The notes under the pieces are model-generated. The model did no database searches. It was not told the DNA's origin and was given only the letters and a program-made list of their open reading frames with translations. The translations under genes were made by a program, and so were the position numbers. From positions 1 to 64,000 of IMG/VR virus record IMGVR_UViG_3300030616_000017: 64,000 bases of DNA, one strand, 5' to 3'. Origin of the DNA: a virus. Shown piece by piece: positions 24,486-44,222 of the stretch (positions are counted from its first letter, which is position 1; each line of letters starts with the position of its first letter).

Positions 24486-24574
24486 TTACATTACTAGTTC
24501 AATTCTCTTGCTTCTAGGATATGATCTCCAATTTGTACATCTTCTCGAATCTCAATAATTTCGTCTTGTTTTAT
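24486..24574 (-). pseudogene. Decayed copy of the repeated IIEI.E..RIG..ILE.GD.I module
   Basis: ATA (former ATG?) then KQDEIIEIREDVQIGDHILEA, a frameshift, then RIELVM* in another frame. Confidence 0.7.
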
Positions 24575-24588
24575 TGCTTTCTCTTTTT

Positions 24589-25107
24589 TTATAATCCTGA
24601 ATCATCCAAAGTAAGATAACTCATTGTAATAGTAACCACTATAGGATCGCCACTACTGTAATCAAATCCAATATCGCCTACATTCTGAACAAAACAACCC
24701 TTGAATCTCCAAGCCCCAAAATCGGGGATAGCATCATCATTAGGAGTTACAGCCCACACAGTAATGTTTGCTCTGTTGTTGTTAGCGGGACCATCAGGTC
24801 CAATTACACCGCTTGCAGAATCACCTACGGCATTCTTCCAAGCCACCAACCCTTTATAGATCCACCAGTTTCTATCTACTCTAAGATCAAAACTGAACTC
24901 TTTCGGTACATCGACTTTACCACCCGGCTTAACAATAGACACACCTTTATACGGTACTTCATATGTCTCTACGCCTGTAGCAGGAATAGTAACGCTTTGC
25001 ACTCTCACAAGGGTTGGTTCTATATCGATGTATGGAATAGGGTCGATAGACATGTTAAATAAATTGCTAAGCGCATCGTCGCCTGCATTATAGATTTTAT
25101 CAATCAT
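24589..25107 (-). CDS. Tail tube protein (T4 gp19-like)
   Basis: Follows the sheath; VQSVTIPA...VPYKG...PG, WRFKGCFVQNVGDIGFDY. Confidence 0.85.
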   Translation of the reverse strand: MIDKIYNAGDDALSNLFNMSIDPIPYIDIEPTLVRVQSVTIPATGVETYEVPYKGVSIVKPGGKVDVPKEFSFDLRVDRNWWIYKGLVAWKNAVGDSASGVIGPDGPANNNRANITVWAVTPNDDAIPDFGAWRFKGCFVQNVGDIGFDYSSGDPIVVTITMSYLTLDDSGL

Positions 25108-25123
25108 TGTTCTTTAGTCTCCT

Positions 25124-25135
25124 TATTATATTAGT
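25124..25135 (-). promoter_or_regulatory. Late-promoter motif ACTAATATAATA
   Basis: Exact copy upstream of the tube gene RBS. Confidence 0.75.
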
Positions 25136-25137
25136 AA

Positions 25138-26709
25138 TTAGCCTATTACTTCACTTACCGATACTGTTTGACCCACATTCACAAATTCTAATTGTACTGT
25201 CTCGGAGAAAGGAGTTACCTTAACACCAAGTGTTAGAATGAATTTCCGCTGCGCAAGAGTATTGGCATCGTTGTTGTTCGTGTCGCATTGTGCTATATAT
25301 TCTGCAAGTAAGTTCTCTGCTAAAATCGGGTCCATAATAATAGAAGTTTTAGATACAGCAAGTCTTCTGTGTAACTCATCATTCAGCTTAACAATCTGAT
25401 ACACAAGAACTTGGTTCATAACGTTTGAAATAATATAATCAAATAGTCTTCTATGAGCAATCCAAGAACTATCAGAAAGGTTATTCGGGCTCTGTGCTGT
25501 ACGTTGAGACACTATCATTGTGCCGTAAGATGGGTATTGAACAATAGGGTTAATTCCAGCAGTATCAAGAGCTTCAAGCTCTGTTTCTGTAGGATCATAC
25601 TCCATCTCAATAATTCCTGAACCTAACTGACCACCATGATTGTTTTCATCCTGCCATGCAGGAGCTCCCCCATTGTAAATGTCACTCATCTGAGCAAGCT
25701 TCACACCTACACGACCTATTAAAGAAGTCCAGAAACTTGAATTGTTATATGTATCTCTTACTTTACCCTGATTCCAATAAAAAGCTAATCCAGCATTATT
25801 CACTCCGTAGCCTTCTTTAGTTGCAATTGCTGTAGTAGAATTTTCACCCGATGGCATAGCCATAATATAGAATGAATATTTTTGGTATGAACTTCTAAGA
25901 GAATCAAAGGCTGTCACAACAGAAGGATCAGCGGTTGGATCCATAAAAATGTCTGCTGCATATTTTCTAATTTGTTTGAAATAATCCCAAGAAGCAACAA
26001 GATCACTTGATTCAGGTTCTTCTCTTGCTCCTCCTGCAAAAGCTACATAAGTAGAATCATCAACAAACCCATTACCTATATCGTAAGTAGAGTTTCTTAC
26101 TACTTGTAGGTAATCATTGTCTTCAAAGATTTCTTCGATATAAATGTTCTTACCAAATCCATCCTTTTGGTTCTCTACAAGAGATACTGTATAAGAATCT
26201 ACTAAACTATAAGTAACTCCTGAATCCTCTGTTTTGTAAAGAGCAATAGTGAAGAAGGTGGTGTCTGTATTATACGTAACCTTAACAGCTAAATCATCTG
26301 TATAAGGGCTTTTTGCTAAAAGAGCAAAATATTCATTATCACTATTAAAAGAATAACTTGATACGAGGTCGGGATCAACTCCATCTGCTAAAGCTTCTGT
26401 TCCTGCATCCGTAACAAGAACCCCACCTAATTCTGAACCTGAATTTTCATCATAAGGGGCTGCTATCCAAAGAGCATCTTGTTTACAATATTCAATTGCT
26501 TCCCAGATATCAGGATATGTTGAGCTTGGCTTACCAAAAATATCAGTAATTCTTTTCTCTTCACCTTTATTAATTTTTATAGGAACTTTAGGTCCTTTAG
26601 GAGCTCTAATAACCATTGCTCCAATTGAACCAGCTTCCCCTATAACGGTAGACGATCTATCTATTTCTTTAACAGATAATCTCCATGAATTTGATGCGCT
26701 TGCTGGCAT
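25138..26709 (-). CDS. Contractile tail sheath protein (gp18-like)
   Basis: VKEIDRS, KGP, FGKP, AGINPI...G....QRT, RRLF, QCD.NNN sheath motifs. Confidence 0.92.
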   Translation of the reverse strand: MPASASNSWRLSVKEIDRSSTVIGEAGSIGAMVIRAPKGPKVPIKINKGEEKRITDIFGKPSSTYPDIWEAIEYCKQDALWIAAPYDENSGSELGGVLVTDAGTEALADGVDPDLVSSYSFNSDNEYFALLAKSPYTDDLAVKVTYNTDTTFFTIALYKTEDSGVTYSLVDSYTVSLVENQKDGFGKNIYIEEIFEDNDYLQVVRNSTYDIGNGFVDDSTYVAFAGGAREEPESSDLVASWDYFKQIRKYAADIFMDPTADPSVVTAFDSLRSSYQKYSFYIMAMPSGENSTTAIATKEGYGVNNAGLAFYWNQGKVRDTYNNSSFWTSLIGRVGVKLAQMSDIYNGGAPAWQDENNHGGQLGSGIIEMEYDPTETELEALDTAGINPIVQYPSYGTMIVSQRTAQSPNNLSDSSWIAHRRLFDYIISNVMNQVLVYQIVKLNDELHRRLAVSKTSIIMDPILAENLLAEYIAQCDTNNNDANTLAQRKFILTLGVKVTPFSETVQLEFVNVGQTVSVSEVIG

Positions 26710-26748
26710 TATACTCTCTCCTTTTCTTTCTTTTTAAAACTTTCTATA

Positions 26749-26760
26749 TATTATATTAGT
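26749..26760 (-). promoter_or_regulatory. Late-promoter motif ACTAATATAATA
   Basis: Exact copy upstream of the sheath gene. Confidence 0.75.
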
Positions 26761-26772
26761 ACTGAGTTCTAA

Positions 26773-27459
26773 TTAATTCAACGTTTCTACTAAAACCTCA
26801 TAAATCTCGTCTATATCCTCTGTAGGAAGATTTTGATCAGCTGCGAACTTCAATAAAGCTGTTTCTGTAACCACTACGTTGGAGTTACTTTTGAGTGCAA
26901 GAGTTTCAAAATCAAAATCGATAGAGGCTGAATGAATCTTATTCCTTTCCAACCAATCTTGTTCATTATATGTGGGATTGATATCAAGACCACTATAAGA
27001 AAGGTGGGCTGGAAAAGCTATATCTTCTCCTTTTATACTTACAGAAGGTTTAAGGATAGTTTTATTATCCGTATCCCATACAAACTCACTGAATGCGTAC
27101 TTCACATCATAATCTGTATGACACCAATAGCTTGCTTCATAACTTAGAGTAATAGGCGCGAATTGCACCTTCTCTCCTATTTCATCTATAAACATACCTG
27201 AAGAGTACGCTCCAACATGCCACCTTTCTCTTATTCCAGGATCGTACCCGTTAAGATAAAAGTTAATGAAAGGAAGCTCAAGATTACCCTCATTCTGATC
27301 AGCTCTCTTTCTAAAAGCATAAGCGTTAGAGGCGTAAATAACTCGAGAAGCATCTCCGTTAAAGAACAGTTCTGCAAAGTGATCTATTGCCTGCAAGTCT
27401 ACTGCATAAATGTTATTGAGGAAGTTTACTGATGTATAATACTTACTTGTTACACTCAT
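26773..27459 (-). CDS. Tail terminator / sheath stabiliser (gp15-like)
   Basis: Upstream of the sheath; LPFINF, PITLSYEA.YW pattern. Confidence 0.6.
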   Translation of the reverse strand: MSVTSKYYTSVNFLNNIYAVDLQAIDHFAELFFNGDASRVIYASNAYAFRKRADQNEGNLELPFINFYLNGYDPGIRERWHVGAYSSGMFIDEIGEKVQFAPITLSYEASYWCHTDYDVKYAFSEFVWDTDNKTILKPSVSIKGEDIAFPAHLSYSGLDINPTYNEQDWLERNKIHSASIDFDFETLALKSNSNVVVTETALLKFAADQNLPTEDIDEIYEVLVETLN

Positions 27460-27461
27460 TA

Positions 27462-27473
27462 TATTATATTAGT
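27462..27473 (-). promoter_or_regulatory. Late-promoter motif ACTAATATAATA, 2 nt before the ATG
   Basis: Occupies nearly the whole 14-nt intergenic gap; no SD. Confidence 0.7.
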
Positions 27474-27743
27474 TTACACCCTTGGTTCTTCAAGATCTAA
27501 GGAAGTTCTTACTTGAGATATGTTTCGGGGTTCTCTTCCGTAACGATCTTCATAGCGAGCATAGAGCATAGCGAGATAGGCTTTTCTAAGTTTTCTATCT
27601 CTCAACTCACTCTCATACCCATTGAGCAACTCTGTATTCGATAGCTCTAAAAGATCGTAACCGTATTCATCCCAAATTCTTTCTCCCACTTCTTGAGATC
27701 TTTTGCCGTTAAGTTGTTTTCCAAATTCTTTTAGTTTTATCAT
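27474..27743 (-). CDS. Hypothetical protein, putative capsid-internal (MIKLKE leader)
   Basis: 89 aa ORF with RBS. Confidence 0.6.
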   Translation of the reverse strand: MIKLKEFGKQLNGKRSQEVGERIWDEYGYDLLELSNTELLNGYESELRDRKLRKAYLAMLYARYEDRYGREPRNISQVRTSLDLEEPRV

Positions 27744-27760
27744 CTTTTTCCTCTTTTTTA

Positions 27761-28426
27761 TTAATACCTTTCAATGAAGGTTACTTGAAGTTTCTTTTCA
27801 TTCTTAAAAGCTATTGCAAAAAAGTCCTTTTCTTCATACATAGAAATAATGTCTCTTGTTGGAAGCTGCACATGTGATTTATTGTTACTAAATATGATTT
27901 CACTTCCTGTAATTTCCATTGTTGGTTGTCCCATGGTTATCGTAGGTTTTAGATCTTCCGAAATATATAAAGCAACTACATCAATCTTTTTACGTTCATA
28001 TTTTTTTAATTTTGCTATTTCATCTGATTCTTCTAAATTAGAAAGAACTTCAATCTTGTCACCTTTTTCTAAAACCACATTCCCGATTCTTATTTCTTCT
28101 ATAATTTCAATAACTTCTTTTTCCATTGTTTTCTCCTGAATGTTGTATAATTCTTCTATAATTCTTCTTAAATGTTTTTCGCAAGCGTTTAATATAACAT
28201 CTTTTGGAACTATTTCAACAGCTGTCAGCTCTTTAGCTTCACCATACGAATCAACTCTTTTGTCCTCTGCATAATAAGGTTTATAATTTTCAGGCACAAC
28301 TAAATTATTCCATTTTATAGCTACATCAGATCCCCAATTTCTTCCGTAATCCTCTACCCACCAATCCTTTCCTCTATTGTTGAAAACTTTCTTAGCTTTT
28401 TCATTATACAAACAAACTTTTCCCAT
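27761..28426 (-). CDS. Hypothetical two-part protein carrying the repeated module; internal RBS + ATG at 28126; PH-like C-terminal domain
   Basis: ...AGGAGAAAACA ATG EKEVIEIIEEIRIGNVVLEKGDKIEVL inside the ORF. Confidence 0.65.
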   Translation of the reverse strand: MGKVCLYNEKAKKVFNNRGKDWWVEDYGRNWGSDVAIKWNNLVVPENYKPYYAEDKRVDSYGEAKELTAVEIVPKDVILNACEKHLRRIIEELYNIQEKTMEKEVIEIIEEIRIGNVVLEKGDKIEVLSNLEESDEIAKLKKYERKKIDVVALYISEDLKPTITMGQPTMEITGSEIIFSNNKSHVQLPTRDIISMYEEKDFFAIAFKNEKKLQVTFIERY

Positions 28427-28438
28427 TCCTTTATCCTT

Positions 28439-28975
28439 TTAATACGAAAATAATCTATACCCAACAGATATAGCATATTTATCTATTGGAAGATAATATA
28501 ACGATGTATAAAACCTATTTATAATTTCTACATTAACACCTATACCTATTTGAGGTTCTGTTTGAACTGCGTTATTTACTAAAATAACAGACCCTGCAAT
28601 TGATATATAATGTTTTTTATTCATCCAATATTCTAATTCATTTACTAGTTCACTCATATCGTCTATAAGTAAATCTTGCCCCACCATTAGCTCTTCTGTA
28701 TTCTTAATTGCTTCTTCAGTGTTGGCTTGTGATTTATCAAGAAGAATATTTAGCTGTTTGTTTGCTTCTAATAGTGTATCATTATTTTCAAGAGCTTTAG
28801 TAAGAGCATCATTGGTTTTCAAATACGCTTCAGCCATATCAATGTAGGCTTGTCGCAGCTCGGCATAGCTCGGAGGAATGATTAACATTTCTCCTTGTAT
28901 GTATGTTACGTCTTCTTCAGCAAATATAAGGAAAGGAGTTATTAAAAATAATAGAATTACTAATAGTTTTTTCAT
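28439..28975 (-). CDS. Secreted coiled-coil protein with C-terminal amphipathic beta-strands (outer-membrane / spanin-like candidate)
   Basis: Sec signal peptide MKKLLVILLFLITPFLIFA, heptad coiled coil, four beta-strands ending GYRLFSY. Confidence 0.55.
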   Translation of the reverse strand: MKKLLVILLFLITPFLIFAEEDVTYIQGEMLIIPPSYAELRQAYIDMAEAYLKTNDALTKALENNDTLLEANKQLNILLDKSQANTEEAIKNTEELMVGQDLLIDDMSELVNELEYWMNKKHYISIAGSVILVNNAVQTEPQIGIGVNVEIINRFYTSLYYLPIDKYAISVGYRLFSY

Positions 28976-29028
28976 TATCTATTGTTAATTATATCTTCTA
29001 TTGTATCGGAGGTAAAGTTTGTCTTTCA

Positions 29029-29610
29029 TTATTTTTCAACTCCTTCTAAATAAATATCAATGCCATTAATCTCCGCATTAGGAAATAGAGAAAAAAATCG
29101 ATCTTCTAATTGATCCCAAGCTGATCCCATAGCTACAATTTTAGCCCGAACAGTAACGTCATATTGGGTATGGGATATGTCCTCATAAGGAAAATTAGCA
29201 GTATCTAACACCTTTTTAACTTGATTAGCTACCGAGGCAGATTTCCCCTCTATAATCTTTATTCTATCTCCTTTCTCCAGAATCACATCTCCAATCCGAG
29301 TTTCTTCTTGAATTTCAATTATTTTGTCTTTTTTCATAATATCCCCTTGTATTGATTCCCCCATAGCTAGCAAAACGCGATCAACTTCCCACTCCTTAAA
29401 AGGAACAGTAATAGTTGTAAATCCACTTTTAATAGCCCCTTGTACTGCTTGCATTAAATAGTCGAATTTAACGCGTAGTTTTTTAGCTATATGAGCGACG
29501 TCACCAACACGAAACTGAGAAGATTGAGCACTTAGCGTATTTAAATAAAACTCTCCAGCTACGCCATTCACTCCGACAGCAGTCACCTGTTTTTCTTGGA
29601 TGTGTCTCAT
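29029..29610 (-). CDS. Hypothetical two-part protein carrying the repeated module; internal RBS + ATG at 29337
   Basis: MRHIQE leader; internal AAGGGGATATT ATG KKDKIIEIQEETRIGDVILEKGDRIKII. Confidence 0.65.
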   Translation of the reverse strand: MRHIQEKQVTAVGVNGVAGEFYLNTLSAQSSQFRVGDVAHIAKKLRVKFDYLMQAVQGAIKSGFTTITVPFKEWEVDRVLLAMGESIQGDIMKKDKIIEIQEETRIGDVILEKGDRIKIIEGKSASVANQVKKVLDTANFPYEDISHTQYDVTVRAKIVAMGSAWDQLEDRFFSLFPNAEINGIDIYLEGVEK

Positions 29611-29615
29611 CTTCG

Positions 29616-29912
29616 TTATCTTACTCTTTGTATTTTTCTTTCTAAATCCATTAATCTTTTTGCAAACTTTTTGATGTCATCATCATAAAGAGTGTACTCT
29701 GGCCCCATACCTACTAAAGAATCATCAAACTCATTGAGCCAGTTTTCTCGTATGTCTGTCATCAAATCGTCCAATTTTTCTTCTACAAAAGCTTCAAATT
29801 CGTTTTCGACATCCATCATATCTTCTTGGATAATTTTAATCTTATCTCCTTTTTCAAGGATTACGTTTCCAAGGTTTATTTCTTCAGTAATTTCAATAAT
29901 TTCTTTTTTCAT
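29616..29912 (-). CDS. Module-tagged acidic hypothetical protein
   Basis: N-terminal MKKEIIEITEEINLGNVILEKGDKIKIIQE. Confidence 0.7.
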   Translation of the reverse strand: MKKEIIEITEEINLGNVILEKGDKIKIIQEDMMDVENEFEAFVEEKLDDLMTDIRENWLNEFDDSLVGMGPEYTLYDDDIKKFAKRLMDLERKIQRVR

Positions 29913-29916
29913 TCCT

Positions 29917-30270
29917 CTACTCCTTAAAATACTTGCTTACTTTATACTGCGTCTCTTTTTGCGCTTGTTTGATTTCTTGGTTTTCCTTCTCCACATCGGT
30001 AACAGCACTATTTATTTCCTCTTGTTCTTTTTCAATCTTTTGATTAGAGGCTTTCAGCTCTTCATTCTTCTTTTTAATTTCTTCTTGTTTCTTTTTGATA
30101 GCTTTGACATCTTTTTGAGCTTTATCTATTTTCTTTTTTGTTTCTTTTTTCTTTTCATTATCATCTTGAGATAAAGCTTTAAGAACCATCATAGCAATAG
30201 TAAAAACAGAGCCTATGATGGTGAGCCACTTAACAATAGTTTGAATAATTAACTTAAACCAATCTTTCAT
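29917..30270 (-). CDS. Membrane-anchored coiled-coil protein (i-spanin-like)
   Basis: N-terminal TM helix then a long K/E coiled coil. Confidence 0.55.
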   Translation of the reverse strand: MKDWFKLIIQTIVKWLTIIGSVFTIAMMVLKALSQDDNEKKKETKKKIDKAQKDVKAIKKKQEEIKKKNEELKASNQKIEKEQEEINSAVTDVEKENQEIKQAQKETQYKVSKYFKE

Positions 30271-30902
30271 ATACTTCCTGCAATGGGCAATAGTTCTTTT
30301 TCTGCGAACTCATCGGGAATCTTCAAGCTGTAGCGCGCGTAATCAAACCCCTCAGTGTCTACATAAAAGAAACCTTTTCTATCAACATTCACCACGTATT
30401 CCATACCAAAACTTTTATCAAAAATAGGTTCAGAAGCTGCTAGGTTTTTATCAAGCCATAGAATACTTTTTTCACGTACGATATTCTTGAGAGCTTCCTT
30501 CTGTGCGGAAGTAAGTATAGCATCTGAAAGTTCATCCCAATCTGCTTTTCTACGAGCAGCAGGATTTCTTAACATCATATCTCTTGTATCTCGAGCTGCT
30601 TCTTTTAGAATTTCGATTGTATCTCCTGCTTCTAAAATGCAATTACCTACTTTAATGTTCTTCTCAAGCACTACTGTGATAGGACTCTTTTTCTCTGCTG
30701 ATTCTTCTTTAAGCATTTCTTTAGAAATACGTGTAGTCTCCTTATCTAGTGCTTTCATGAATTCATTAGAAAGGGGATCATCTGAAGTCGCTAGTCCTTT
30801 TAGGAGCTGTACGCTCTTCATTTGTTCCTCGTTACTACCTGCAAAATTGCCTTGAAGATCTTTAATAATCTTCTTAATGTCTGCTTCTTGAATTTTTCTC
30901 AT
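30267..30902 (-). CDS. Hypothetical protein with an internal copy of the repeated module
   Basis: MRKIQEA leader; ITVVLEKNIKVGNCILEAGDTIEILKE; C-terminal YVDTEGFDYARY. Confidence 0.7.
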   Translation of the reverse strand: MRKIQEADIKKIIKDLQGNFAGSNEEQMKSVQLLKGLATSDDPLSNEFMKALDKETTRISKEMLKEESAEKKSPITVVLEKNIKVGNCILEAGDTIEILKEAARDTRDMMLRNPAARRKADWDELSDAILTSAQKEALKNIVREKSILWLDKNLAASEPIFDKSFGMEYVVNVDRKGFFYVDTEGFDYARYSLKIPDEFAEKELLPIAGSI

Positions 30903-30920
30903 TATTCCCTCCTGTTCTTG

Positions 30921-31229
30921 CTACAGTATGGCCGCTTCTCTAGCGCCTTCGTAAAAGCCGTCTTTATCACTATCTATATTATATTCATCACATGCTCCAG
31001 CGATAGCTGCTGCAACTAGCTCAGCTCCAAATTCGTATAAATCTACACCACTGTCAAAGTCATCATCTTTTGGCAATTCGTTATATACAGCCCGCGCGAG
31101 CTCTTTAGATCGCTGTTCCACTGTAACGGAGAGACGCTCATTCATTATCCGAATCTTGTCCCCCTCTTCAAGCACCACGTTTCCAATTTTTACTTCTTCT
31201 TTGATTTTAATAATTTTGTCTTTTTTCAT
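30921..31229 (-). CDS. Module-tagged hypothetical protein
   Basis: MKKDKIIKIKEEVKIGNVVLEEGDKIRIMNE; cargo paralogous to the C-terminus of the upstream neighbour. Confidence 0.7.
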   Translation of the reverse strand: MKKDKIIKIKEEVKIGNVVLEEGDKIRIMNERLSVTVEQRSKELARAVYNELPKDDDFDSGVDLYEFGAELVAAAIAGACDEYNIDSDKDGFYEGAREAAIL

Positions 31230-31264
31230 TGTCTTTCTTCCTCTTTATTACTTTTTTTAGAAAA

Positions 31265-32026
31265 TTACCTGTAATAGGCTCCGCCTTCTAATCCTTCTAT
31301 AAACTCCCTGATTTCAATATCTCCAAACAATGCAGCAAACTTTTGAACAAGGGCCTGAGCACAAACCCCCCCTATTTCAGCAGCTTCAACTCCTCCATAA
31401 GGATCTTCATCGGGAAAGGTATTATAAACAGCTTCTATTAAATCTTTAGCAGCCTTAACCACGTCTGGATGGAGTCTTTCTTTTAGAATACGGATTTTGT
31501 CTCCTTTCCCGAGAATAATTTCGCCAATCCTAATATCCTCTTTGATTTCTATAATCTTATCTTTCATAATATTATTCCTTTTTCTCTTTTCAAATATATA
31601 TTTAAACTTATTATTCCGCCGATACTGCGCGGCAATCCTTTCGTCAGCTAGCTCAATTTCAGAAGAAGACACTGTTACAACTTCCGCTTCTGAATCTAAA
31701 TACCGCACTGTACACTCACCTCTTCGGGGGATACTTTTAACAACACCATAAGAGGCTGTATCCCAAGATCTGTCACCATAATTGTCATAGCCTAGAACGC
31801 TAACAACATCTCCAATCTGAATGTTCTCGGCTATCTCTTTGATACTTTTTTTCAATGTATTCTCCTTCTTACTTTTTACAATACTCTTTGCTATAGACAT
31901 AACTTGAGCCCATTCTTCAGGTCCCCAATTATCTTCTTTCTTTTTGGTTTGATCTTTGAATATGTCTTTAGCTCTCTTCCAAGCTTTTTCTTTTTTTGGG
32001 TCGTCTTTAACCCAATTAACTGGCAT
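31265..32026 (-). CDS. Multidomain hypothetical protein: ChaB-like helix pair, SH3/KOW-like domain, repeated module (internal ATG 31567) and cargo
   Basis: EKAWKRAK...WAQVMSIAK; IQIGDVV...GVV....TVRY; MKDKIIEIKEDIRIGEIILGKGDKIRILKE. Confidence 0.65.
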   Translation of the reverse strand: MPVNWVKDDPKKEKAWKRAKDIFKDQTKKKEDNWGPEEWAQVMSIAKSIVKSKKENTLKKSIKEIAENIQIGDVVSVLGYDNYGDRSWDTASYGVVKSIPRRGECTVRYLDSEAEVVTVSSSEIELADERIAAQYRRNNKFKYIFEKRKRNNIMKDKIIEIKEDIRIGEIILGKGDKIRILKERLHPDVVKAAKDLIEAVYNTFPDEDPYGGVEAAEIGGVCAQALVQKFAALFGDIEIREFIEGLEGGAYYR

Positions 32027-32041
32027 CTCTACTTTCTCCTC

Positions 32042-32082
32042 AAAAAAATCTTGTTACTATGTTATATTAGTAACAAGATTTT
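32042..32082 (-). terminator. 15-bp perfect hairpin with U-tract that embeds a late-promoter variant (ACTAATATAACA, 32060-32071)
   Basis: AAAATCTTGTTACTA / TAGTAACAAGATTTT inverted repeat with an 8-nt loop. Confidence 0.6.
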
Positions 32083-32090
32083 AAAAGTTT

Positions 32091-32417
32091 CTATTCTAAG
32101 GAAAAATAAATCGTTTCAGGGGGCTGTTCGAAGTACTGATACAACACAGGGCAAAGCCATCCTTCTCTTCCTGTTTCCTCTGAATGGTACAGCGACCATT
32201 GATCTCCGCATGCTTCCTGAAGCTCAATTTTATGCTCCAGTTCCACTACATCAGAAAACATAAGCGTACGAGGCTCTTTTCCTAGCTGTTCTTTTACAGC
32301 TTCAATAATTTCTGAACTTCCCATAACAAATGCTTCATTTTTGATACCTTTGCCTCGATCATCAAAAACCCAATTATTTCCTTGTCTATGTATCCACACA
32401 ATGTATGTGTTTTCCAT
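32091..32417 (-). CDS. DUF6717-like protein (start revised to ATG 32417)
   Basis: WVFDD....EAFV.G...II...L.FS...GWLCP.L..YF..PP..IY; GAGGAGGAG RBS before 32417. Confidence 0.7.
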   Translation of the reverse strand: MENTYIVWIHRQGNNWVFDDRGKGIKNEAFVMGSSEIIEAVKEQLGKEPRTLMFSDVVELEHKIELQEACGDQWSLYHSEETGREGWLCPVLYQYFEQPPETIYFSLE

Positions 32418-32535: not shown

Positions 32536-34086
32536 CTAAGCAGTATACTTACCTTCTTTAAGTTCAATGAGAGCCCATCTCTGCCATTTTTTACTCTCTA
32601 ATGATTCTCCTGACATGAGAAATATGTGAAGCACTTTGGTGAAAAGTCTAAAGCTGAGAGGCTGATTAGCTTTATGAATAAATCTCTTTATCCAGTCCAA
32701 GATACTCTGCTTCGTGTTAATATCTACATCTGTAGGGTCTATACCTGATAGTGCTTGTTGAATAATATCGGCTACCTGCTCATCTGTAAAGAGAAAACTG
32801 ATAGCGTATACGCGGTCTTGAATCGGTTGAGGAATTTTAGGAAAGTTGGTAATCATAATAACTTTAGAATTAAAGGCAAAGTTATACATACTCTCTCCTG
32901 CCTCCACATCCATAAGACCTGCATCGGAAGTAAAATCTATAACATCGCTCGTACTAACTTCGGGGGCTGCTTCTCCAGTATCCCCTCTTTTTTGTTTCTT
33001 TTCCACCTTTACAATTCTAGGCGTATCAGGATCAAGAATACTTTTAAGAATGTTCTGAATGGTGTTATTTTTCATATCATCATTGGTGAGGATATCATCC
33101 AAGATAATAATCTCTCCTTCTCTATGCTTGTAAAGCAGCGTAAGGAGACCTTCATATCCCTTAACCTTTCCTTTAGTATAATATGTTTGAGGCAGATTAC
33201 CCAAGATTTCTTTAGCATAGTATGATTTTCCAATACCGCCTCTTCCGTAGAGATACACGCCCTGAGCAGGGAGTTTATCTTGCATCATTTGACGGAAATA
33301 GAATTTCATAAGATCATACTTCTCTAAATGTTCGTTCTGCATAATCTCTTGCTCGAACTCATCCTCTGCACTCGAATTAGTGGTAATAGGCTGTTCCGGC
33401 TGGCCTCTTCTAATATTTACGTGAGGAATTGCGTCAGCGGCTCTATCATCCCCCATTTCGCTGAAAGCTCTTCGACAATACATCTGAAAAGTCCCTACGT
33501 TTGGAATACTTTCTCTGATGCCTCTTGAGCTGAGCCAATTTAAATACATGTCTTGGATAACAGCCCAATCCCTGCTTCTCCCTCTTGCCATTTCGGCAGC
33601 AGCGCCCGGATCTGATTGCATCCACTCTAATACACCACTCCTATGAGAAAACCTTTCTTGGAGATTTGCTTGAGCCTTGTAGCTTTCTTCTACAACATCG
33701 AAATACTCTCCAGTCAATACCATAGCAATATGATCTAGCACCTGTACAATATTAAACTGAGGAGGAATTTCAATTGTATAAGTGGGTGTCCTAGATACCT
33801 TCTCAAACACATCTACCGACACAATGCTATCAGAACTACCTGTTAAAGCAAAGTTAAGTCTAATAGCCTCAAATGTACCATAGAAAGACATATAACCAGC
33901 AAACTTTCCTTCTGCGTTTTGATATTCAATAGGGAATGAAGCTGGTTCTTTCATCCCACTAAAATCAATTCCTGTTTTTCTGTTCAACACTCTCAGCATC
34001 TTGGGAACCATTTCAGCAGCCTTTCCTGCACGAAACGCTTCTTGAGTGCTTTTCTTTTTGTCTTCAAAGCTCTTTACTAATCTCAT
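32536..34086 (-). CDS. AAA+ ATPase with an uncharacterised N-terminal region
   Basis: Walker A GRGGIGKS, Walker B IIILDD, sensor ITN, arginine finger DR. Confidence 0.8.
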   Translation of the reverse strand: MRLVKSFEDKKKSTQEAFRAGKAAEMVPKMLRVLNRKTGIDFSGMKEPASFPIEYQNAEGKFAGYMSFYGTFEAIRLNFALTGSSDSIVSVDVFEKVSRTPTYTIEIPPQFNIVQVLDHIAMVLTGEYFDVVEESYKAQANLQERFSHRSGVLEWMQSDPGAAAEMARGRSRDWAVIQDMYLNWLSSRGIRESIPNVGTFQMYCRRAFSEMGDDRAADAIPHVNIRRGQPEQPITTNSSAEDEFEQEIMQNEHLEKYDLMKFYFRQMMQDKLPAQGVYLYGRGGIGKSYYAKEILGNLPQTYYTKGKVKGYEGLLTLLYKHREGEIIILDDILTNDDMKNNTIQNILKSILDPDTPRIVKVEKKQKRGDTGEAAPEVSTSDVIDFTSDAGLMDVEAGESMYNFAFNSKVIMITNFPKIPQPIQDRVYAISFLFTDEQVADIIQQALSGIDPTDVDINTKQSILDWIKRFIHKANQPLSFRLFTKVLHIFLMSGESLESKKWQRWALIELKEGKYTA

Positions 34087-36164: not shown

Positions 36165-36398
36165 TTATAAATCCTCTATTTTAATTTTCTCTTTTTTCTT
36201 TTTATGACTTAATTCAATTAACTGAATTAATAAGCTCTTCTTTTCTCTAAGCCTATCAAACATAAAACCCTCTTTACTAATTTTCATCTTCCTATTAGCA
36301 AGCTCATTAATAACGAAAATAAAACCTACTAATAAAATTGATAAAAATACCATTACAAACCATTCCGGCAATGCAAAAAACCCTTTCCAAAATTCCAT
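36165..36398 (-). CDS. Small single-TM membrane protein (holin-like?)
   Basis: One hydrophobic helix and a basic C-terminus. Confidence 0.45.
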   Translation of the reverse strand: MEFWKGFFALPEWFVMVFLSILLVGFIFVINELANRKMKISKEGFMFDRLREKKSLLIQLIELSHKKKKEKIKIEDL

Positions 36399-36754
36399 TA
36401 CTTTTTACTCCACACCTTTATTTTTTGCCCAGGATGTAGAGTTATCTCATTTATTGTTACTTCAGTTTCAATATCAATAACTTCTTCATACCCCGCTTCT
36501 TGAGATTCTACTTCTTCTGAATCAACACGATCAAGAACGGCATGAAATTCCCCAATATGTACTTTTTCTTCTTTTGCAATATCCAATAATACTTTTTTAA
36601 GTAAAGAGTGCTTGGACGCACGCGCAAGAATATTATATAGATTTATTGCACTTTGTTCCGCTGAAATTGCTATTCTTAGAATTTCTTGATCTGTAGCATC
36701 CTCTAAGTTTAATTCTGTTATAGCCTGTAAAACTGATTCTTTTATTCTTTTCAT
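36398..36754 (-). CDS. Ferritin-like protein of the encapsulin-cargo (EncFtn/Flp) / rubrerythrin type with a C-terminal degenerate module copy
   Basis: LRIAISAEQSAINLY...LLDIAKEEKVHIGEF...D.E......G.EEV di-iron motif; tail VIDIETEVTINEITLHPGQKIKV. Confidence 0.75.
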   Translation of the reverse strand: MKRIKESVLQAITELNLEDATDQEILRIAISAEQSAINLYNILARASKHSLLKKVLLDIAKEEKVHIGEFHAVLDRVDSEEVESQEAGYEEVIDIETEVTINEITLHPGQKIKVWSKK

Positions 36755-36774
36755 TCTGATTTCTTCCTAAAAGT

Positions 36775-37916: not shown

Positions 37917-37921
37917 AGAGT

Positions 37922-38071
37922 TTATCCTTTTTTCTTAATGATAAAGGGAAGAGAAATATCCCATCTCCAGCTCGTGTATTGAACATAATCTAAGCTGTCT
38001 CTGTTCTCCCAAGGCAAAATTGTGCCAACATCCGGGTGAACTTCTTTTAAGTTTTTTCTCGTCTCAATCAT
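37922..38071 (-). CDS. 49-aa small ORF or truncated gene (MIETRKNLKEVHPDVGTILPW...)
   Basis: ATGA overlap with the upstream stop and fills the intergenic gap; not in the ORF track. Confidence 0.4.
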   Translation of the reverse strand: MIETRKNLKEVHPDVGTILPWENRDSLDYVQYTSWRWDISLPFIIKKKG

Positions 38072-39105: not shown

Positions 39106-39611
39106 TAGATTTCATCCCCATAGCTCTCTACAATAGACTGCACCTCTTCTGGAAGAGGCATATTATGAGGAGAGCAATTAAACTTTCTTCCTGTAATGTA
39201 ACCTGCTTGCACTGTTCCTAGCAGCTCCGACACTCTTAATACTAAATACAAATCTTTTGCACTCCTTCCATCATGAATTATATGAATAAGAATATCTCCT
39301 TTTTCCACATTATCCTCATGAGCGGCAAATCCTTCTATAGGAAGTACATCGTAAAAGTAAAGAGCTTCTGGCTGAGCGACTGCGCTTGTAACATCCTCTC
39401 TTAGTCTTGTGTAGGGTAGGTCATCAGGAAAAATTAAATTAACGGTGATTTTATCACTATCAATAATTTCTACTGTTTCGTCTCCATATATGTTTTCTTC
39501 TACTTTAAGACGAACAACAACAGACTCTATTCCTATTTGACTTATTTTATAGTCTCGGAGTTTGAGTCTGGCTTGTATTTGGCTTTTAGCGATTTTATCT
39601 TGTAGGCTCAA
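39105..39611 (-). CDS. Head completion / neck protein (gp14-like)
   Basis: TTG start after RBS and late promoter; NIYGD and beta-rich stopper-like fold. Confidence 0.45.
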   Translation of the reverse strand: MSLQDKIAKSQIQARLKLRDYKISQIGIESVVVRLKVEENIYGDETVEIIDSDKITVNLIFPDDLPYTRLREDVTSAVAQPEALYFYDVLPIEGFAAHEDNVEKGDILIHIIHDGRSAKDLYLVLRVSELLGTVQAGYITGRKFNCSPHNMPLPEEVQSIVESYGDEI

Positions 39612-39635
39612 CCTTTCTTTCCTTTTTGAGTATTA

Positions 39636-39647
39636 TATTATATTAGT
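39636..39647 (-). promoter_or_regulatory. Late-promoter motif ACTAATATAATA
   Basis: Exact copy inside a short TGAGTA...TACTCA inverted repeat. Confidence 0.7.
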
Positions 39648-39664
39648 ACTCATATAGAAAAGAT

Positions 39665-40216
39665 TTAAGAAACTGGTCGCCGAGCAGAAGGAACTCTTGT
39701 TTGAGCTCTCTCTTCTCCTTTTACAGAGTTGGCTCTATCCTCTATAGAAAGAGAGCGAAGTTCACTTCGCATATTAAGCGAAAGGTTGATGAGTAGATTA
39801 TCTATTTTTTTCCACCCCTCCACAAGTTGGCGGTATAGGGATAGTTCCCTTTCAAGACGATCTAAAGAAGACCTCTTCTCCCTAAACTCTTCTTTATTTC
39901 TTACTCTTGTTTCAGATTCAAGCTCTTGTTTAGAGAGCCACTTAGTTCCCGCGATATCGTTCGTGTTGATCTCTCTTCTTGTAGCTACGAATCTCTCATC
40001 CCACCACATATCGAACTCTCTCTGTGCGGAAATCAATTCTGCTTTCTTTCTTTGATACTCCGATGTAAGAGTAAAAAGAATAGGCCCATAATTAGCAAGA
40101 GCTCCGTTGAGTCTATCTGGTGTAATAATTTCATTATCGGTTAGGGTAGCATATCGTCTGTACTTTTGTACGACAGCACTTACCATATCGATGTATTCTC
40201 TTGTATTTTCATCCAC
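39665..40216 (-). CDS. UvsY-like helical recombination mediator (tentative)
   Basis: All-helical 183 aa with UvsY-like layout; preceded by an early-type promoter. Confidence 0.45.
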   Translation of the reverse strand: MDENTREYIDMVSAVVQKYRRYATLTDNEIITPDRLNGALANYGPILFTLTSEYQRKKAELISAQREFDMWWDERFVATRREINTNDIAGTKWLSKQELESETRVRNKEEFREKRSSLDRLERELSLYRQLVEGWKKIDNLLINLSLNMRSELRSLSIEDRANSVKGEERAQTRVPSARRPVS

Positions 40217-40262
40217 GAAAATACCCTCCTCGTTGTGTTGTAATTTCCTTACTATATGTTAT

Positions 40263-40291
40263 AATATAACAAAAAATATCACTTTTTTAAA
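40263..40291 (-). promoter_or_regulatory. Early-type promoter, extended -10 TGtTATATT with weak -35 TTTAAA
   Basis: Same TTTTTTGTTATATTATA context as the promoter at 32466. Confidence 0.5.
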
Positions 40292-40310
40292 TGATAGAGG
40301 AGGGTATTGT

Positions 40311-40895
40311 TTATAACAATTCGTGTTCTTTCAACTCTTCTTTATACTCATCAGTCATTTTTTCTTCTGCATTTTCATCTACTTTCTTCAACTCCTCTTC
40401 TAAAGCTACGTCATCTGGAATAACCTTGCCAGAAAAAATTCTCTCATCTGCTTCACTCAAGCCGGTTCCATCTGCTTTTCCTTTTCCAGGCCCAGCGCCT
40501 TGACCATGAGGCCCGGTTCCATCTCTTTTATACAACCTATCTTCTTCTGTTTCTTCCTCATCTTCATCTTCCTCTTCCTCTTCATCTTTATACGGCTCTT
40601 CTTTATGAGTCATCACTGAATCAATTCCAAAAGAAGTAGAGCTTTGTACTGCTTCTTCTATAAAGTCTTTAGCGGATTTTTCAGATTTAATAAACTCTGC
40701 TACACTAAATCTTTCATCTACTCCCAGATGAGAGAGTACAATACGCTTTGCATATTCGAAATGCTTGCTCTCAAAAACCTCTTCCTTTACTCCGTAAGCT
40801 TCAGAGGTGCTTGCTTTAGCTTTTTCCCACAACTTTTTAATATCGTTTTCTGACTGTCCTGTTTCTTTAACCAATGCTTTCACATAAGGGCTCAT
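40311..40895 (-). CDS. Acidic hypothetical protein with ChaB-like N-terminus (putative prohead core / internal protein)
   Basis: IKKLWEKAK...FEYAKRIV; poly-Glu tract; RDGTGPHGQG.G motif; many [ILV]xE sites. Confidence 0.6.
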   Translation of the reverse strand: MSPYVKALVKETGQSENDIKKLWEKAKASTSEAYGVKEEVFESKHFEYAKRIVLSHLGVDERFSVAEFIKSEKSAKDFIEEAVQSSTSFGIDSVMTHKEEPYKDEEEEEDEDEEETEEDRLYKRDGTGPHGQGAGPGKGKADGTGLSEADERIFSGKVIPDDVALEEELKKVDENAEEKMTDEYKEELKEHELL

Positions 40896-40910
40896 CTTTC
40901 TTTACCTCTC

Positions 40911-41240
40911 TTATATACTTTGGATGGTGTTTCTAGCAGCCCACTTATTGGACCAAATCCAAATATATGGATCAGTTCCGTTTTTGGCTGTTTGAATCAT
41001 CTGCTTATATGTTCTGTTCTTTGTTGAGGGAGGATCGGTTTCATGATCCTTTGCTTTCAATCGTCTAAGTAACAAAGCGAATTCATCTTCAGATCCTCTA
41101 AAGCGAAACTCCCCTTTGTTAACCCCATCCCCTTGCCTGTTTTCGACAGGGCGTAGGCGATATTGATTTTCTCCCTCTACATAAATCTTAATTTTAAGTA
41201 GTCTATTTCTTTCTTCTTTTACTTTTTTAAGTATAACCAT
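40911..41240 (-). CDS. Hypothetical protein (MVILKKVKEE leader)
   Basis: 109 aa ORF with RBS. Confidence 0.6.
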   Translation of the reverse strand: MVILKKVKEERNRLLKIKIYVEGENQYRLRPVENRQGDGVNKGEFRFRGSEDEFALLLRRLKAKDHETDPPSTKNRTYKQMIQTAKNGTDPYIWIWSNKWAARNTIQSI

Positions 41241-41253
41241 CTATCCTTGCTCC

Positions 41254-41643
41254 TTAACTTGAGGATGATTCTCCCTCTTCATCACTGTCTGGTGTATAAC
41301 CGTACACTCTTACTTTTATTGTATTCTCTTCCCCCGATGTATCTGCAAACCCAATAGAAACTAATCCTGCAGAAAACAATTCAGAAGGAGAAAAAGCAAA
41401 AAAATCTTTTATACCGAATTGAACTACTTCTGCTCCTGTAAGTGTAATAGTCGCTTCTCCTGTCGCCTCAATCACCACTAAGCGAATATCTTCTATAGTG
41501 TTTACAGGAAGGGTAAGAGCTCCCAGAGCGAGAAGATTTACATCGTATTCTACTTTCTCTTGTAATGTCCAAGTTATCTCTTTGTAAAAATTATTTGTAT
41601 TTCTTGTGAGATTTTCATCGTATACTTTGCTTATGAATTTCAT
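41254..41643 (-). CDS. Hypothetical beta-rich (structural?) protein
   Basis: 129 aa directly after a late promoter. Confidence 0.6.
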   Translation of the reverse strand: MKFISKVYDENLTRNTNNFYKEITWTLQEKVEYDVNLLALGALTLPVNTIEDIRLVVIEATGEATITLTGAEVVQFGIKDFFAFSPSELFSAGLVSIGFADTSGEENTIKVRVYGYTPDSDEEGESSSS

Positions 41644-41654
41644 TCTTTTCCTCT

Positions 41655-41666
41655 TATTATATTAGT
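41655..41666 (-). promoter_or_regulatory. Late-promoter motif ACTAATATAATA
   Basis: Exact copy followed by AGAGGA RBS and ATG. Confidence 0.75.
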
Positions 41667-41893
41667 TATATTTCCCCATAAAGATACTTAACAATGTAAT
41701 CGTATAAGTAACTATAAAATACATTATCACTTGGTGTTGGTACTTCTGAAATATTCACTCTATCAAAACTTATAGGAATAAGAGTATTGTTAATGAAGAT
41801 TTCAGTATGCTTTCTCTTTTCCTTCAAAGAAATATAAAATCCGGGCAAGTCTTCTTCTAAACGTTGTTGTATCCTTCTAAGCTCTGCGTCCAT
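41666..41893 (-). CDS. Hypothetical protein
   Basis: 75 aa in operon context. Confidence 0.5.
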   Translation of the reverse strand: MDAELRRIQQRLEEDLPGFYISLKEKRKHTEIFINNTLIPISFDRVNISEVPTPSDNVFYSYLYDYIVKYLYGEI

Positions 41894-42138
41894 GGTGCGT
41901 CTTTATAGTTTTCAGCAAGTTTTTCTAATTTTTTTACAATTTCTTCCGTTATTGTAAAATCTAAAACTTGCTGAGGAACACCTTCTTTTATGGCTTGGAA
42001 GTCGAGGTCTTGTTCTACCTCATCTTCCTCTTCCATGTATTCGGCGTACCACCTATCCTCCTCTATATTTAATATAACAGTAAAATGATCAAAATTAAAG
42101 GATATCTCATGGAAAGTTTCTATTAGAGGATCACTCAT
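41857..42138 (-). CDS. Hypothetical acidic protein
   Basis: 93 aa, start overlaps the upstream stop. Confidence 0.55.
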   Translation of the reverse strand: MSDPLIETFHEISFNFDHFTVILNIEEDRWYAEYMEEEDEVEQDLDFQAIKEGVPQQVLDFTITEEIVKKLEKLAENYKDAPWTQSLEGYNNV

Positions 42139-42823
42139 CTTTTAAGATACCTCTTTTCATAAGATGTTCTATAAGAGCTAAGCCGTGCTTTGGAAAAAAA
42201 GGAATATTACTTGGATTTCTTTCCGGGGCTGATCTAAGAGGATGCATCTGCCCATACAAGTGTCCGTGGTAGCGAAGAGCCCATGCATCTCTAAAAATAA
42301 AATCACCATTTATTCCTAGCATTTGGGCGTTATAGTCGCCAACATCTAAATACTTAGCACTGCGCTTGTGTCGTTGAACTAAACGCCTATACTCAGCTTG
42401 AGCTTCTTGTTGGGTGCGTGCTCTTCTTTGAGCTTTTTCTCTAAAACGTCTTCTTGTTTCGGGATACAGAGATTGAATATGCTTTTGAGGAGGCTTCTTT
42501 ACCCACTTCTTATAACTACCTAATCTATATTTCCATATTTTATTATTGAGGGTGAGTTCTTTTAAGGTAAGAATGCTTTCGTATTGATGACGTATTCTTC
42601 GCTGATTCCTTCCTCTGCTCCCCCTAACGTAAGCTCCGTATTGAGGATAGGAAAAGGTTTCTATTTTAAAATACTTCTGGGGTCGCTCAGGGTGATTAAC
42701 ATTTATATCATATCTTTCTTTGATAACTACACGCCTCAATACATCTCTTTCTCTGTAGTTGAAGCGTGTGGGGAAGTGTCTGCGGGTAAGTAGCATGACT
42801 TGTTTTATGGTAAAATTACCCAT
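42131..42823 (-). CDS. Basic hypothetical protein with a degenerate SWIM-like C-terminus
   Basis: Arg/Lys-rich; GDFIFRDAW...G.LYG.....P.RNP.N.P.FPKH. Confidence 0.6.
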   Translation of the reverse strand: MGNFTIKQVMLLTRRHFPTRFNYRERDVLRRVVIKERYDINVNHPERPQKYFKIETFSYPQYGAYVRGSRGRNQRRIRHQYESILTLKELTLNNKIWKYRLGSYKKWVKKPPQKHIQSLYPETRRRFREKAQRRARTQQEAQAEYRRLVQRHKRSAKYLDVGDYNAQMLGINGDFIFRDAWALRYHGHLYGQMHPLRSAPERNPSNIPFFPKHGLALIEHLMKRGILKDE

Positions 42824-42829
42824 AAACTG

Positions 42830-43570
42830 TTACCCCCGTAGCAGCACAACTTTAGGATAGTTTTTCCACTTCTCTGTTACTTCTTCGTATAACTCTTCTG
42901 CTCTAGAAATAAGCTCTCCTCCATCTAAATCATCAGGAGAGGAGGTAGAGATTTGATTGCGTAAAGAACCAAAATAATGAAGAACATAGCTCTGGGCTAA
43001 TTTAATAACATCTTCTTCAAATCTAAAATCAACAGATGCCCAGTCTAAAGAGTATTTAGCCCATATAATAGACAATTGGCCTGTAATGTTGCTGTAGCCT
43101 GTGACTTTTCTGTTAGCATAATCAATTGTTTTCTTAAAGCCTTTATATGTATCTGTGATACTTTGTCTACGAGCTTTCTCTGCATAGTACACTTCACTAT
43201 ATCCATAGTCGTTTCCTGTATTCCACATATTAGCATACCCTCTGCTTTCCGCTTGTCTGATGTTGAGGTCGTTAATAAGAGGGTTACCTGTTTTTATCGT
43301 AGAATAATAAGGGCGGGTGTTAAGACGAAGATCTAGTACGCCCCATGTCTGCTCATCAGGAAAATCCACTGAAAATGTAGAATTGACTTGATAAGAGGCT
43401 TCCTCTTTCACGGGAAACCATTTGAAGTAAATGTTCTTTAGAGCGGGCAAAATGAGTAGATCTTCCACTTGATCTCTTGTTACTTCTAAATCGGTTTCCG
43501 ATACAATGGGATAACCCATGCAAGTCATTATTCTTTGATATATGTCATCGGGAAGTGTAAGTTGAGACAT
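42830..43570 (-). CDS. Neck / head-tail adaptor protein (gp13-like)
   Basis: MGYPIV...EVTRDQVED; C-terminal LDGGELISRAEE. Confidence 0.75.
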   Translation of the reverse strand: MSQLTLPDDIYQRIMTCMGYPIVSETDLEVTRDQVEDLLILPALKNIYFKWFPVKEEASYQVNSTFSVDFPDEQTWGVLDLRLNTRPYYSTIKTGNPLINDLNIRQAESRGYANMWNTGNDYGYSEVYYAEKARRQSITDTYKGFKKTIDYANRKVTGYSNITGQLSIIWAKYSLDWASVDFRFEEDVIKLAQSYVLHYFGSLRNQISTSSPDDLDGGELISRAEELYEEVTEKWKNYPKVVLLRG

Positions 43571-43580
43571 CTCTTCTCCC

Positions 43581-43865
43581 TTAGAATTGTTTAGATGCTG
43601 TAAAGCTTAAATTCCTAAAAAGCTGGGAAACTTCGTAATCTACATCTGCCCAATCTTCAGACATGTACATAAAAAGATTAGCTAAATCTGTTGCTAAGTA
43701 TCTAGAACCTTTATCACTGTAAACTTCTGTTGTAAGACTGGAAAAGTCAGGTCCAAGAAATCTTTTAAAATGATCCTCTTTTAGAATACGAATCTTATCA
43801 CCTTTTTCAAGAATAATATTCCCAATACGAGTATCTTCTTTTATTTCCACAATACCTTTTTTCAT
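43581..43865 (-). CDS. Module-tagged hypothetical protein
   Basis: MKKGIVEIKEDTRIGNIILEKGDKIRILKE. Confidence 0.7.
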   Translation of the reverse strand: MKKGIVEIKEDTRIGNIILEKGDKIRILKEDHFKRFLGPDFSSLTTEVYSDKGSRYLATDLANLFMYMSEDWADVDYEVSQLFRNLSFTASKQF

Positions 43866-43898
43866 TCTTGTTTACTCCTTCTTAAATAAACCACTTAG

Positions 43899-43948
43899 AA
43901 AAGCCTTTTACCTCAATCTGTAGTAGGAAGAGGAGGAGGTAAAAGGCT
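43899..43948 (-). terminator. Hairpin / terminator
   Basis: 13-bp inverted repeat AGCCTTTTACCTC / GAGGTAAAAGGCT, 21-nt loop, short U-tract. Confidence 0.55.
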
Positions 43949-43964
43949 GATGTAAAGAGTTCAC

Positions 43965-44222
43965 TTATTTCTTTTTCTTTTTAGATTCTTCTTTTTCTTC
44001 TTCGTCATCTTTTTCTTCTTCGTCTTCACCTTCTTCATCTTCTTTTTCGTCTTCGTCGCCCATTTCTTCTTCTTCATCTTTCTTTTTAGCTTCCTCTACC
44101 TTAGAGTAAACTATAATTTCATCACCTTTTTCAAGGATGATGTCGGTGCCAGCAATTCTAACATCCTCTTCTATAGTAAGCTTTACACCTTTTTCTTTTT
44201 TCTTCTTTTCTGCGTATCTCAT
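43965..44222 (-). CDS. Small protein consisting of the repeated module plus a D/E tail (start revised to ATG 44222)
   Basis: AAGGAGA RBS; MRYAEK...VKLTIEEDVRIAGTDIILEKGDEIIV..KVEEA then an acidic tract; own promoter and terminator. Confidence 0.7.
   Translation of the reverse strand: MRYAEKKKKEKGVKLTIEEDVRIAGTDIILEKGDEIIVYSKVEEAKKKDEEEEMGDEDEKEDEEGEDEEEKDDEEEKEESKKKKK

Follow-up and report, generated by a model that had tools for sequence, protein, structure and literature searches.

What is a module of about 30 residues doing on a series of proteins that are otherwise mostly unrelated, all encoded among the virion genes of one large phage? We addressed this question in a stretch of 64,000 nucleotides (the window), which is the first 64 kb of the single-contig IMG/VR record IMGVR_UViG_3300030616_000017 (147,158 bp; complete by CheckV). 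Every gene in the region concerned lies on the minus strand. A sequence-only reading had pointed to ten occurrences of the module between positions 24486 and 44222, and had interpreted it as a tag that loads cargo into the capsid. In our analysis, an uncultured clade of 130-200-kb myoviruses most likely uses the module as a portable address label. That this label is a capsid-targeting tag on prohead cargo, removable by a protease and analogous to the capsid-targeting sequence (CTS) of phage T4, is a proposal to which we give an even chance of being right. The module, its predicted fold, its spread and position, the motif at its end, the protease family and the gene contexts were computed here; docking, cleavage, packaging and ejection are what we infer from them. 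Below, "tag" denotes the module and "passenger" the protein part attached to it.

Module copies in the window and among uncultured phages

A hidden Markov model (HMM) built from seven copies was searched against all 147,158 bp of the genome, translated in six frames. Besides its seven seeds, it recovered a remnant after the tail tube gene (E 8e-7) and the module of an acid-tail protein (E 2e-3), and it found no more copies in any of the six frames of the remaining 83 kb. A second HMM, built solely from 166 foreign metagenomic copies, detected the eight intact window copies with E-values from 1e-13 to 5e-7 and the remnant with an E-value of 1.4e-5. Judged by these profiles, the statistics are solid for eight intact copies and for one truncated remnant.

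Three of the intact copies, all on the minus strand like the others, occupy the N-terminus of a small protein. They lie at 29823..29912 in the 98-aa protein 29616-29912, at 31137..31229 in the 102-aa protein 30921-31229 (each detected by both HMMs) and at 43776..43865 in the 94-aa protein 43581-43865, where the module ends in L-K-E and the foreign-only HMM gives E 1e-13. Four copies are internal. That of the 211-aa protein 30267-30902 (30600..30683) was found by both HMMs and follows an N-domain that recurs before tags in metagenomic proteins. The remaining three begin with a methionine: at Met102 of the 221-aa protein 27761-28426 (28025..28123), at Met93 of the 193-aa protein 29029-29610 (29245..29334) and at Met154 of the 253-aa protein 31265-32026 (31478..31567). 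The last protein contains a second stretch matched by the HMM, a degenerate half copy with only the first two strands, at residues 58-84 (31775..31855; independent E-value 0.019).

The eighth intact copy (44091..44189; foreign-only HMM 9e-12) belongs to the acid-tail protein 43965-44222, whose true start is the ATG at 44222, preceded by a Shine-Dalgarno sequence. The sequence-only reading took the module for nearly the whole of this protein, which was an overestimate: it has a longer loop form (A-G-T-D) and covers about 33 of the 85 residues, and the remainder is an acidic low-complexity tail of 40 aa. The degenerate copy at the C-terminus of the ferritin-like protein 36398-36754 (36410..36481) is marginal by score with both HMMs (E 0.1 to 0.6). 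In the related genome G001, however, an orthologue with a ferritin part 49% identical to that of the window protein continues into a clearer partial module. The module is thus present at all ten places where it had been noticed, the marginal ferritin copy being backed by its orthologue.

The truncated remnant (24509..24568) lies directly after the tube gene within 24486-24574, a segment that had been read as a pseudogene. It comprises the first three strands only, lacks a start codon and ends ahead of the G-D box that marks the module, and the related locus L017 has an intact 83-aa tagged gene at the same position; the remnant is therefore fairly called a pseudogene. As had been claimed, the parts attached to the modules are mostly unrelated to each other by BLAST, the sole exception being the C-parts of the 30921 and 31265 proteins (E 2e-5). 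Among the copies, identity is 80% at second codon positions versus 39% at third positions. From these values, the copies are judged to be old, with third codon positions and synonymous sites near saturation. Recent duplication or gene conversion as the source of their similarity was rejected because of this near-saturation.

We further searched 1.84 billion cluster representatives with the profile, accepting matches at E <= 1e-3. This yielded 1,024 metagenomic protein clusters, 89 of them at E <= 1e-10; ten that we looked up are metagenomic proteins without a name, some on contigs of about 140 kb. IMG/VR relatives were found at 49-80% identity, on contigs that include ones of 133, 147, 147 and 201 kb, and each large relative has 5-11 copies of the module. 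By contrast, neither the window proteins nor 95-150 foreign tagged proteins placed the module in a family of Pfam, PHROGs or NCBIfam. Among PDB sequences, a profile search met nothing better than hairpins of local resemblance (E > 0.3), such as those in P450 BM3 and YybH. The module had not been recognised as a named domain before, and it matches none of these collections. With Foldseek, no PDB structure matched at E <= 0.001. A wide structure search (VIA) gave results dominated by a helical C-part, with little bearing on the module itself, and the ESM Atlas returned only viral hypothetical clusters. No tag was found in 50,697 phage records by tblastn of tagged proteins, and no confirmed relative in 185,579 species genomes at the sensitivity used. 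A match in an Erwinia phage over the tag region of the metagenomic protein P0022 was rejected as a non-coding extension. On these searches, the module appears to be confined to uncultured phages.

Two other assignments were considered. The last hairpin of TrkA-C (RCK_C, PF02080) locally resembles the second half of the module. However, only one of the 150 best-matching proteins matches that family, at 26.4 bits against a cut-off of 27 and over profile positions 37-59 of 71, and homology to TrkA-C or to other beta hairpins with a G-D box is without structural or profile support. A leader like those of ribosomally synthesized and post-translationally modified peptides did not suit the passengers, which are folded domains of 60-500 residues, and was therefore dropped.

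Fold, boundary and placement of the module

Anatomy was analysed in the best 150 proteins of the 1,024, which contain 171 instances of the module. N-terminal placement predominates (119 instances, compared with 42 internal and 10 C-terminal ones), and 20 of the 150 proteins bear two or three copies. For the 94-aa window protein, AlphaFold with an alignment of 95 sequences modelled residues 1-30 as four short strands at a predicted local distance difference test (pLDDT) score of 83-93, followed at residues 33-47 by a disordered linker with pLDDT below 50; from the single sequence, the model was poor (pLDDT 48). The model suggests that the module is an independently folding unit with an L-E-x-G-D turn, usually starting at the initiator methionine.

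Conservation ends abruptly eight residues past the G-D box, at a motif with a hydrophobic residue at +6 and glutamate at +8 (hydrophobic-x-Glu). The motif stands at this fixed place in 97 of 166 instances. Where it does not, 48 of 64 instances have a hydrophobic-x-Glu within the next 15 residues, versus 29% of control windows, and the displaced motifs align across insertions in MAFFT alignments. The earlier observation that most copies are followed by such a motif was thus confirmed in the window and extended to its relatives. A gp21-like protease that cuts after glutamate would find a candidate site here, at the border between a folded tag and a disordered linker.

The loop between strands 2 and 3 also varies, in a manner that is specific to the lineage and common to unrelated passengers within one genome. 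It is short in the window and its nearest relatives, long and rich in Q and D in G001, and of a P-G-T-D type in G003-G005. The acid-tail and multi-tag proteins have the P-G-T-D-type loop in every genome.

How are the internal copies to be understood? About half of them (24 of 46, versus 28% expected) have kept an initiator methionine. In the window, each of the three internal copies that start with methionine (27761-28426, 29029-29610 and 31265-32026) has a Shine-Dalgarno-like sequence before that in-frame ATG, AGGAG in the case of 27761-28426. The kept methionine and Shine-Dalgarno sequence indicate that these internal copies are N-terminally tagged genes fused to upstream open reading frames (ORFs), an arrangement that would be expected of an N-terminal tag and that also fits the long propeptides of giant phages. 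Each gene with such an internal start possibly makes a long and a short product.

The passengers are small (median 66 residues) and acidic (median pI 4.8), and almost none has a Pfam domain. These properties bear on a different explanation: late accessory proteins would use the tag as a general domain for oligomerisation or for binding partners, would work in the cell, for example in host takeover or anti-defence, and would never be packaged, with the Glu motif being part of the fold. Many anti-defence proteins are likewise small, acidic and fast-evolving, and one passenger domain recurs without a tag in many cultured phages as a common accessory protein. The occurrence of tags at any position on a protein, and of proteins with tandem tags, also agrees with this explanation. 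It does not account for a Glu motif that is re-created downstream if displaced, and it fares no better with the gene contexts described below.

Gene context, prohead protease and passengers

An 11-base motif, ACTAATATAAY, occurs at 15 sites in the window (1762-62930), all on the minus, coding strand, versus 0.19 expected. It precedes the portal, sheath, tube and other virion operons (for example at 52692-52702, 26750-26760 and 25125-25135), and probably represents the late promoter of the phage. The same motif heads the operon that runs from 32026 to 27474 and contains six tags (32061..32071), and it stands before the acid-tail gene (44264..44274). The acid-tail gene had been credited with its own promoter and terminator. 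The promoter motif is there; for the terminator, a 13-bp hairpin with a U-rich tail lies downstream (43902..43948; fold -25.7 kcal/mol, z -2.3), which a simple consensus terminator scan did not call.

PHROGs matches, all on the minus strand, place the portal at 50864-52663, the major capsid (head) protein at 46417-47826 (phrog_138), the tail sheath at 25138-26709 and the tail tube at 24589-25107. A homing endonuclease gene (44336-46264), likewise recognised through PHROGs, sits right after the capsid gene; L002 has a similar insertion in the same place, and L017 has one between sheath and tube. The tail region also contains an ORF of 3,513 residues (7455-17996). Two untagged proteins of the six-tag operon, one with a signal peptide and one a membrane-anchored coiled-coil protein (28439-28975, 29917-30270), deserve mention. 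The former is conserved beside tagged genes in L016 and L018, and the latter has weak spanin-like matches.

Neighbourhoods in the relatives were read from IMG/VR loci and from searches of entire records. In L002 and L020, the gene order is portal, protease-scaffold, three to four tagged genes, capsid. Tagged genes likewise adjoin the capsid gene in L003, L004, L005 and L006, and G002 encodes a 464-aa tagged protein between portal and protease. This recurring placement between the protease-scaffold and capsid genes, together with the finding that every window copy belongs to a virion-gene operon with the structural promoter, the other 83 kb being free of the module, argues against proteins that merely act in the cell. 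So does the presence of an encapsulin-type ferritin among the cargo. We consider that explanation unlikely.

Several copies per genome had been expected, and this was borne out in every large relative; confinement to head-gene regions was not. Tagged genes also adjoin sheath or tube in the window, G001, L016 and L017. In G001, an orthologue of the acid-tail protein lies between sheath and tube, and, at 40 kb from the capsid gene, a cluster of eight tagged genes comes after homologues of 52919 and 40311 of the window. L016 and L018 encode three-tag proteins with acidic linkers between conserved structural genes. The copies beside sheath and tube and the distant G001 cluster indicate that tags belong to the late virion block and not strictly to the head genes. 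A glycine-rich motif, D-G-T-G-P...G-K-G-K-A-D-G, beside an acidic run is common to the conserved, untagged protein 40311-40895 and the triple-tag proteins (L016 2775-3323; L018 7186-7812), and the N-domain of 40311 is also found ahead of a tag in the metagenomic protein P0037.

Genes beside sheath and tube could equally belong to proteins that the tag anchors to the virion without proteolysis, as decoration of the capsid exterior or as parts of the tail. A C-terminal tag could not be removed in the way of an N-terminal propeptide, and a place away from the DNA would suit acidic passengers better. We nevertheless regard an uncleaved anchor as improbable. It leaves the conservation of the Glu motif at the tag boundary unexplained, and it does not predict the predominance of N-terminal placement or the disordered linker after the tag. 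A location inside the head, moreover, matches the EncB-type ferritins, which are cargo within HK97-fold shells.

The ferritin-like window protein 36398-36754 is a Rubrerythrin-type half-ferritin (PF02915, 9.1e-10; 39.5 bits, above the cut-off of 22.8). Its nearest curated family is EncB, although the scores lie below the cut-offs: 5.7e-15 and 55 bits with NCBIfam EncB_fam (NF058679; cut-off 90), and 7e-12 and 45 bits with TIGR04535 (cut-off 125). In the EncB-family comparison, the G001 orthologue gives 2.7e-10. The ferritin of L002 is a classical one (PF00210, 4e-26) and has the tag upstream. Among three phages, the tag thus appears to have been acquired by two different ferritin families. Larger passengers exist as well. 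The window encodes a conserved 516-aa P-loop/AAA-like protein (32536-34086; DUF5906-like, weak) just upstream of the tag operon, within the virion block, and its homologue in G003 bears an N-terminal tag. One metagenomic GNAT acetyltransferase is tagged at its C-terminus.

If the tag is removed by proteolysis, a suitable protease should be encoded nearby. The gene at 49247..50824 (minus strand) encodes, in its N-terminal part of about 175 aa, a prohead protease (phrog_207, head maturation protease, 1.8e-7), fused to a scaffold part, a long coiled coil with a conserved C-terminal end. The best PDB match of a clade profile built from four members is T4 gp21 (5JBL), at a marginal E of 0.034. The two residues that do not vary in the clade, His and Ser, align with the presumed catalytic His and Ser positions of gp21, which are Ala in the 5JBL chain. 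One relative matches PF03420 (Peptidase S77) at a marginal E of 0.018; in the genome itself, there is no direct match to Pfam S77 (PF03420) or S78. The case for a gp21-like protease is weak statistically but coherent, and the analogy with T4 that had been drawn from the module gains from it. Both gp21 and the proteases of phiKZ and SPN3US cleave after Glu and remove N-terminal targeting propeptides (PMC5694885; PMC3012670), which measure 10-20 residues in T4 and >100 residues in SPN3US (PMC5694885).

The major capsid protein is at most 26% identical to those of cultured phages. T4 gp23 was not found by phmmer of the capsid protein against PDB, and we claim no likeness to gp23. When the N-termini of seven relatives were compared, hydrophobic-x-Glu motifs proved conserved in a charged N-terminal extension of about 70 aa, which is compatible with a propeptide.

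The protease-scaffold and capsid genes have a gene for a small heat-shock protein, Hsp20, between them (48037-48447; PF00011 at 1e-10), and it is kept near head genes in L002, G002 and L020. I-x-I/V motifs bind the alpha-crystallin groove, and I-x-I is nearly invariant in strand 1 of the module. The tag might then be a docking element for the phage's own Hsp20, with tagged proteins held as clients, and the conserved position of the Hsp20 gene beside head and tag genes in these four genomes would agree. What connects the two is a motif resemblance, and Hsp20 genes occur in many large phages that lack the module. The terminal Glu motif, the multi-tag acidic proteins and the gene positions would all be left unexplained. 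We consider such a role very improbable.

For the targeting tag, we propose the following course of events. Late in infection, the tag would dock its passenger onto the assembling prohead core, by way of the protease-scaffold protein or of other tag-bearing core proteins. Multi-tag proteins with acidic linkers, and the acid-tail protein of the window, may act as multivalent components of this core; the earlier idea that a tag-only acidic protein serves as a hub is in keeping with the multi-tag acidic proteins of the relatives. The gp21-like prohead protease would cut after the Glu of the hydrophobic-x-Glu that closes the tag, and the passenger, freed inside the head, would remain beside the DNA, perhaps to reach the host cell together with it.

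We favour this course because it explains most features jointly: the N-terminal placement, the fold with its linker, the separately maintained Glu motif and a protease of a Glu-specific family. The late virion operons, the position beside scaffold and capsid genes, the encapsulin-type cargo and the multivalent acidic tag proteins are accounted for as well. Several observations weigh against it. The hydrophobic-x-Glu could merely be the last strand of the fold, and a folded 30-residue domain is unlike the short targeting sequence of T4. The passengers are mostly acidic, unlike the internal proteins of T4, which are basic. Thirty percent of the tags stand inside the protein or at its C-terminus, a number of tagged genes are found among tail genes or at a distance of 40 kb from the capsid gene, and the tag operon also holds the two untagged proteins mentioned above. 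The link between the protease and gp21 depends on marginal E-values of 0.018-0.034, though the catalytic residues align, and the functional steps are all drawn from sequence, models and gene context.

A stronger version can be put forward tentatively: the clade would load its cargo by a truly modular system, standing between the packaging of internal proteins by phages and the loading of encapsulins, in which the folded tag and multivalent acidic hubs condense arbitrary passengers into the prohead core and the gp21-like protease frees them. Its candidate passengers would be the EncB-like and classical ferritins, the AAA-type ATPase, the acetyltransferase and many small acidic proteins. Cumulatively, the cargo-loading interpretation from which we started is partly supported. 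A portable folded unit on unrelated proteins stands, by BLAST and AlphaFold; a likeness of the cargo to the internal proteins of T4 fits less well, given its mostly acidic passengers.

Significance and comparison with known targeting systems

If the targeting proposal holds, an uncatalogued family of >1,000 clusters would mark the packaged, and probably injected, protein arsenal of an uncultured clade of large phages, and its passengers would become candidate anti-defence or host-takeover factors. A folded domain that can be shuffled would then also perform the targeting that removable N-terminal labels perform in T4 and the phiKZ group. Through the tagged EncB-like ferritin, the link proposed between phage capsids and encapsulins becomes open to experiment, and such a compact natural tag, which would bring its own release site, might help to fill HK97-fold or capsid-like particles with proteins.

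The T4 CTS is not known to form a folded domain. In other respects, the CTS of IPI-III and Alt, which is removed by gp21 (PMC3012670; PMC5694885), resembles the module: both are conserved N-terminal labels on diverse, fast-evolving small proteins, and both end in a hydrophobic-x-Glu site (Glu at P1, hydrophobic at P3), at which cleavage is predicted here. Both belong to late genes, and a candidate gp21-like prohead protease is encoded in the present phage. The module, too, is mostly found at the extreme N-terminus, and half of the internal copies keep an initiator methionine. By contrast, the CTS comprises 10-20 residues (PMC5694885) and has no sequence similarity to the module, which has about 30 residues and four predicted strands and is without a match to any PHROG of cultured phages. 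The module, unlike the CTS, also occurs internally, C-terminally and in tandem, and its passengers are acidic.

In phiKZ, 201phi2-1 and SPN3US, a gp21-like protease cleaves behind Glu to remove N-terminal propeptides of >100 residues from head and ejection proteins, and paralogues with conserved N-termini are found (PMC5694885). Long propeptides of this kind fit the proteins described here in which an N-domain precedes the tag and the passenger. The cleavage motif of those phages, however, has a small residue (S/A/G) at P3, whereas that of the module is hydrophobic; a shared portable domain is not described there, and the phages form a separate lineage.

Encapsulins share with the present system an HK97-fold shell and a terminal address label on the cargo. 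EncB-type cargo carries its loading peptide at the C-terminal end, and the window ferritin-like protein, which is nearest to EncB-type cargo (NF058679, TIGR04535), has the module at its C-terminal end. Encapsulin loading peptides are short linear motifs, whereas the label described here is a predicted folded module outside known families, and the shell would be the capsid protein of a 147-kb tailed phage, which packages DNA. The principle of an address label is thus known from the T4 CTS, giant-phage propeptides and encapsulin loading peptides; the device, a folded and shufflable domain of about 30 residues with more than 1,000 carrier families, is uncatalogued.

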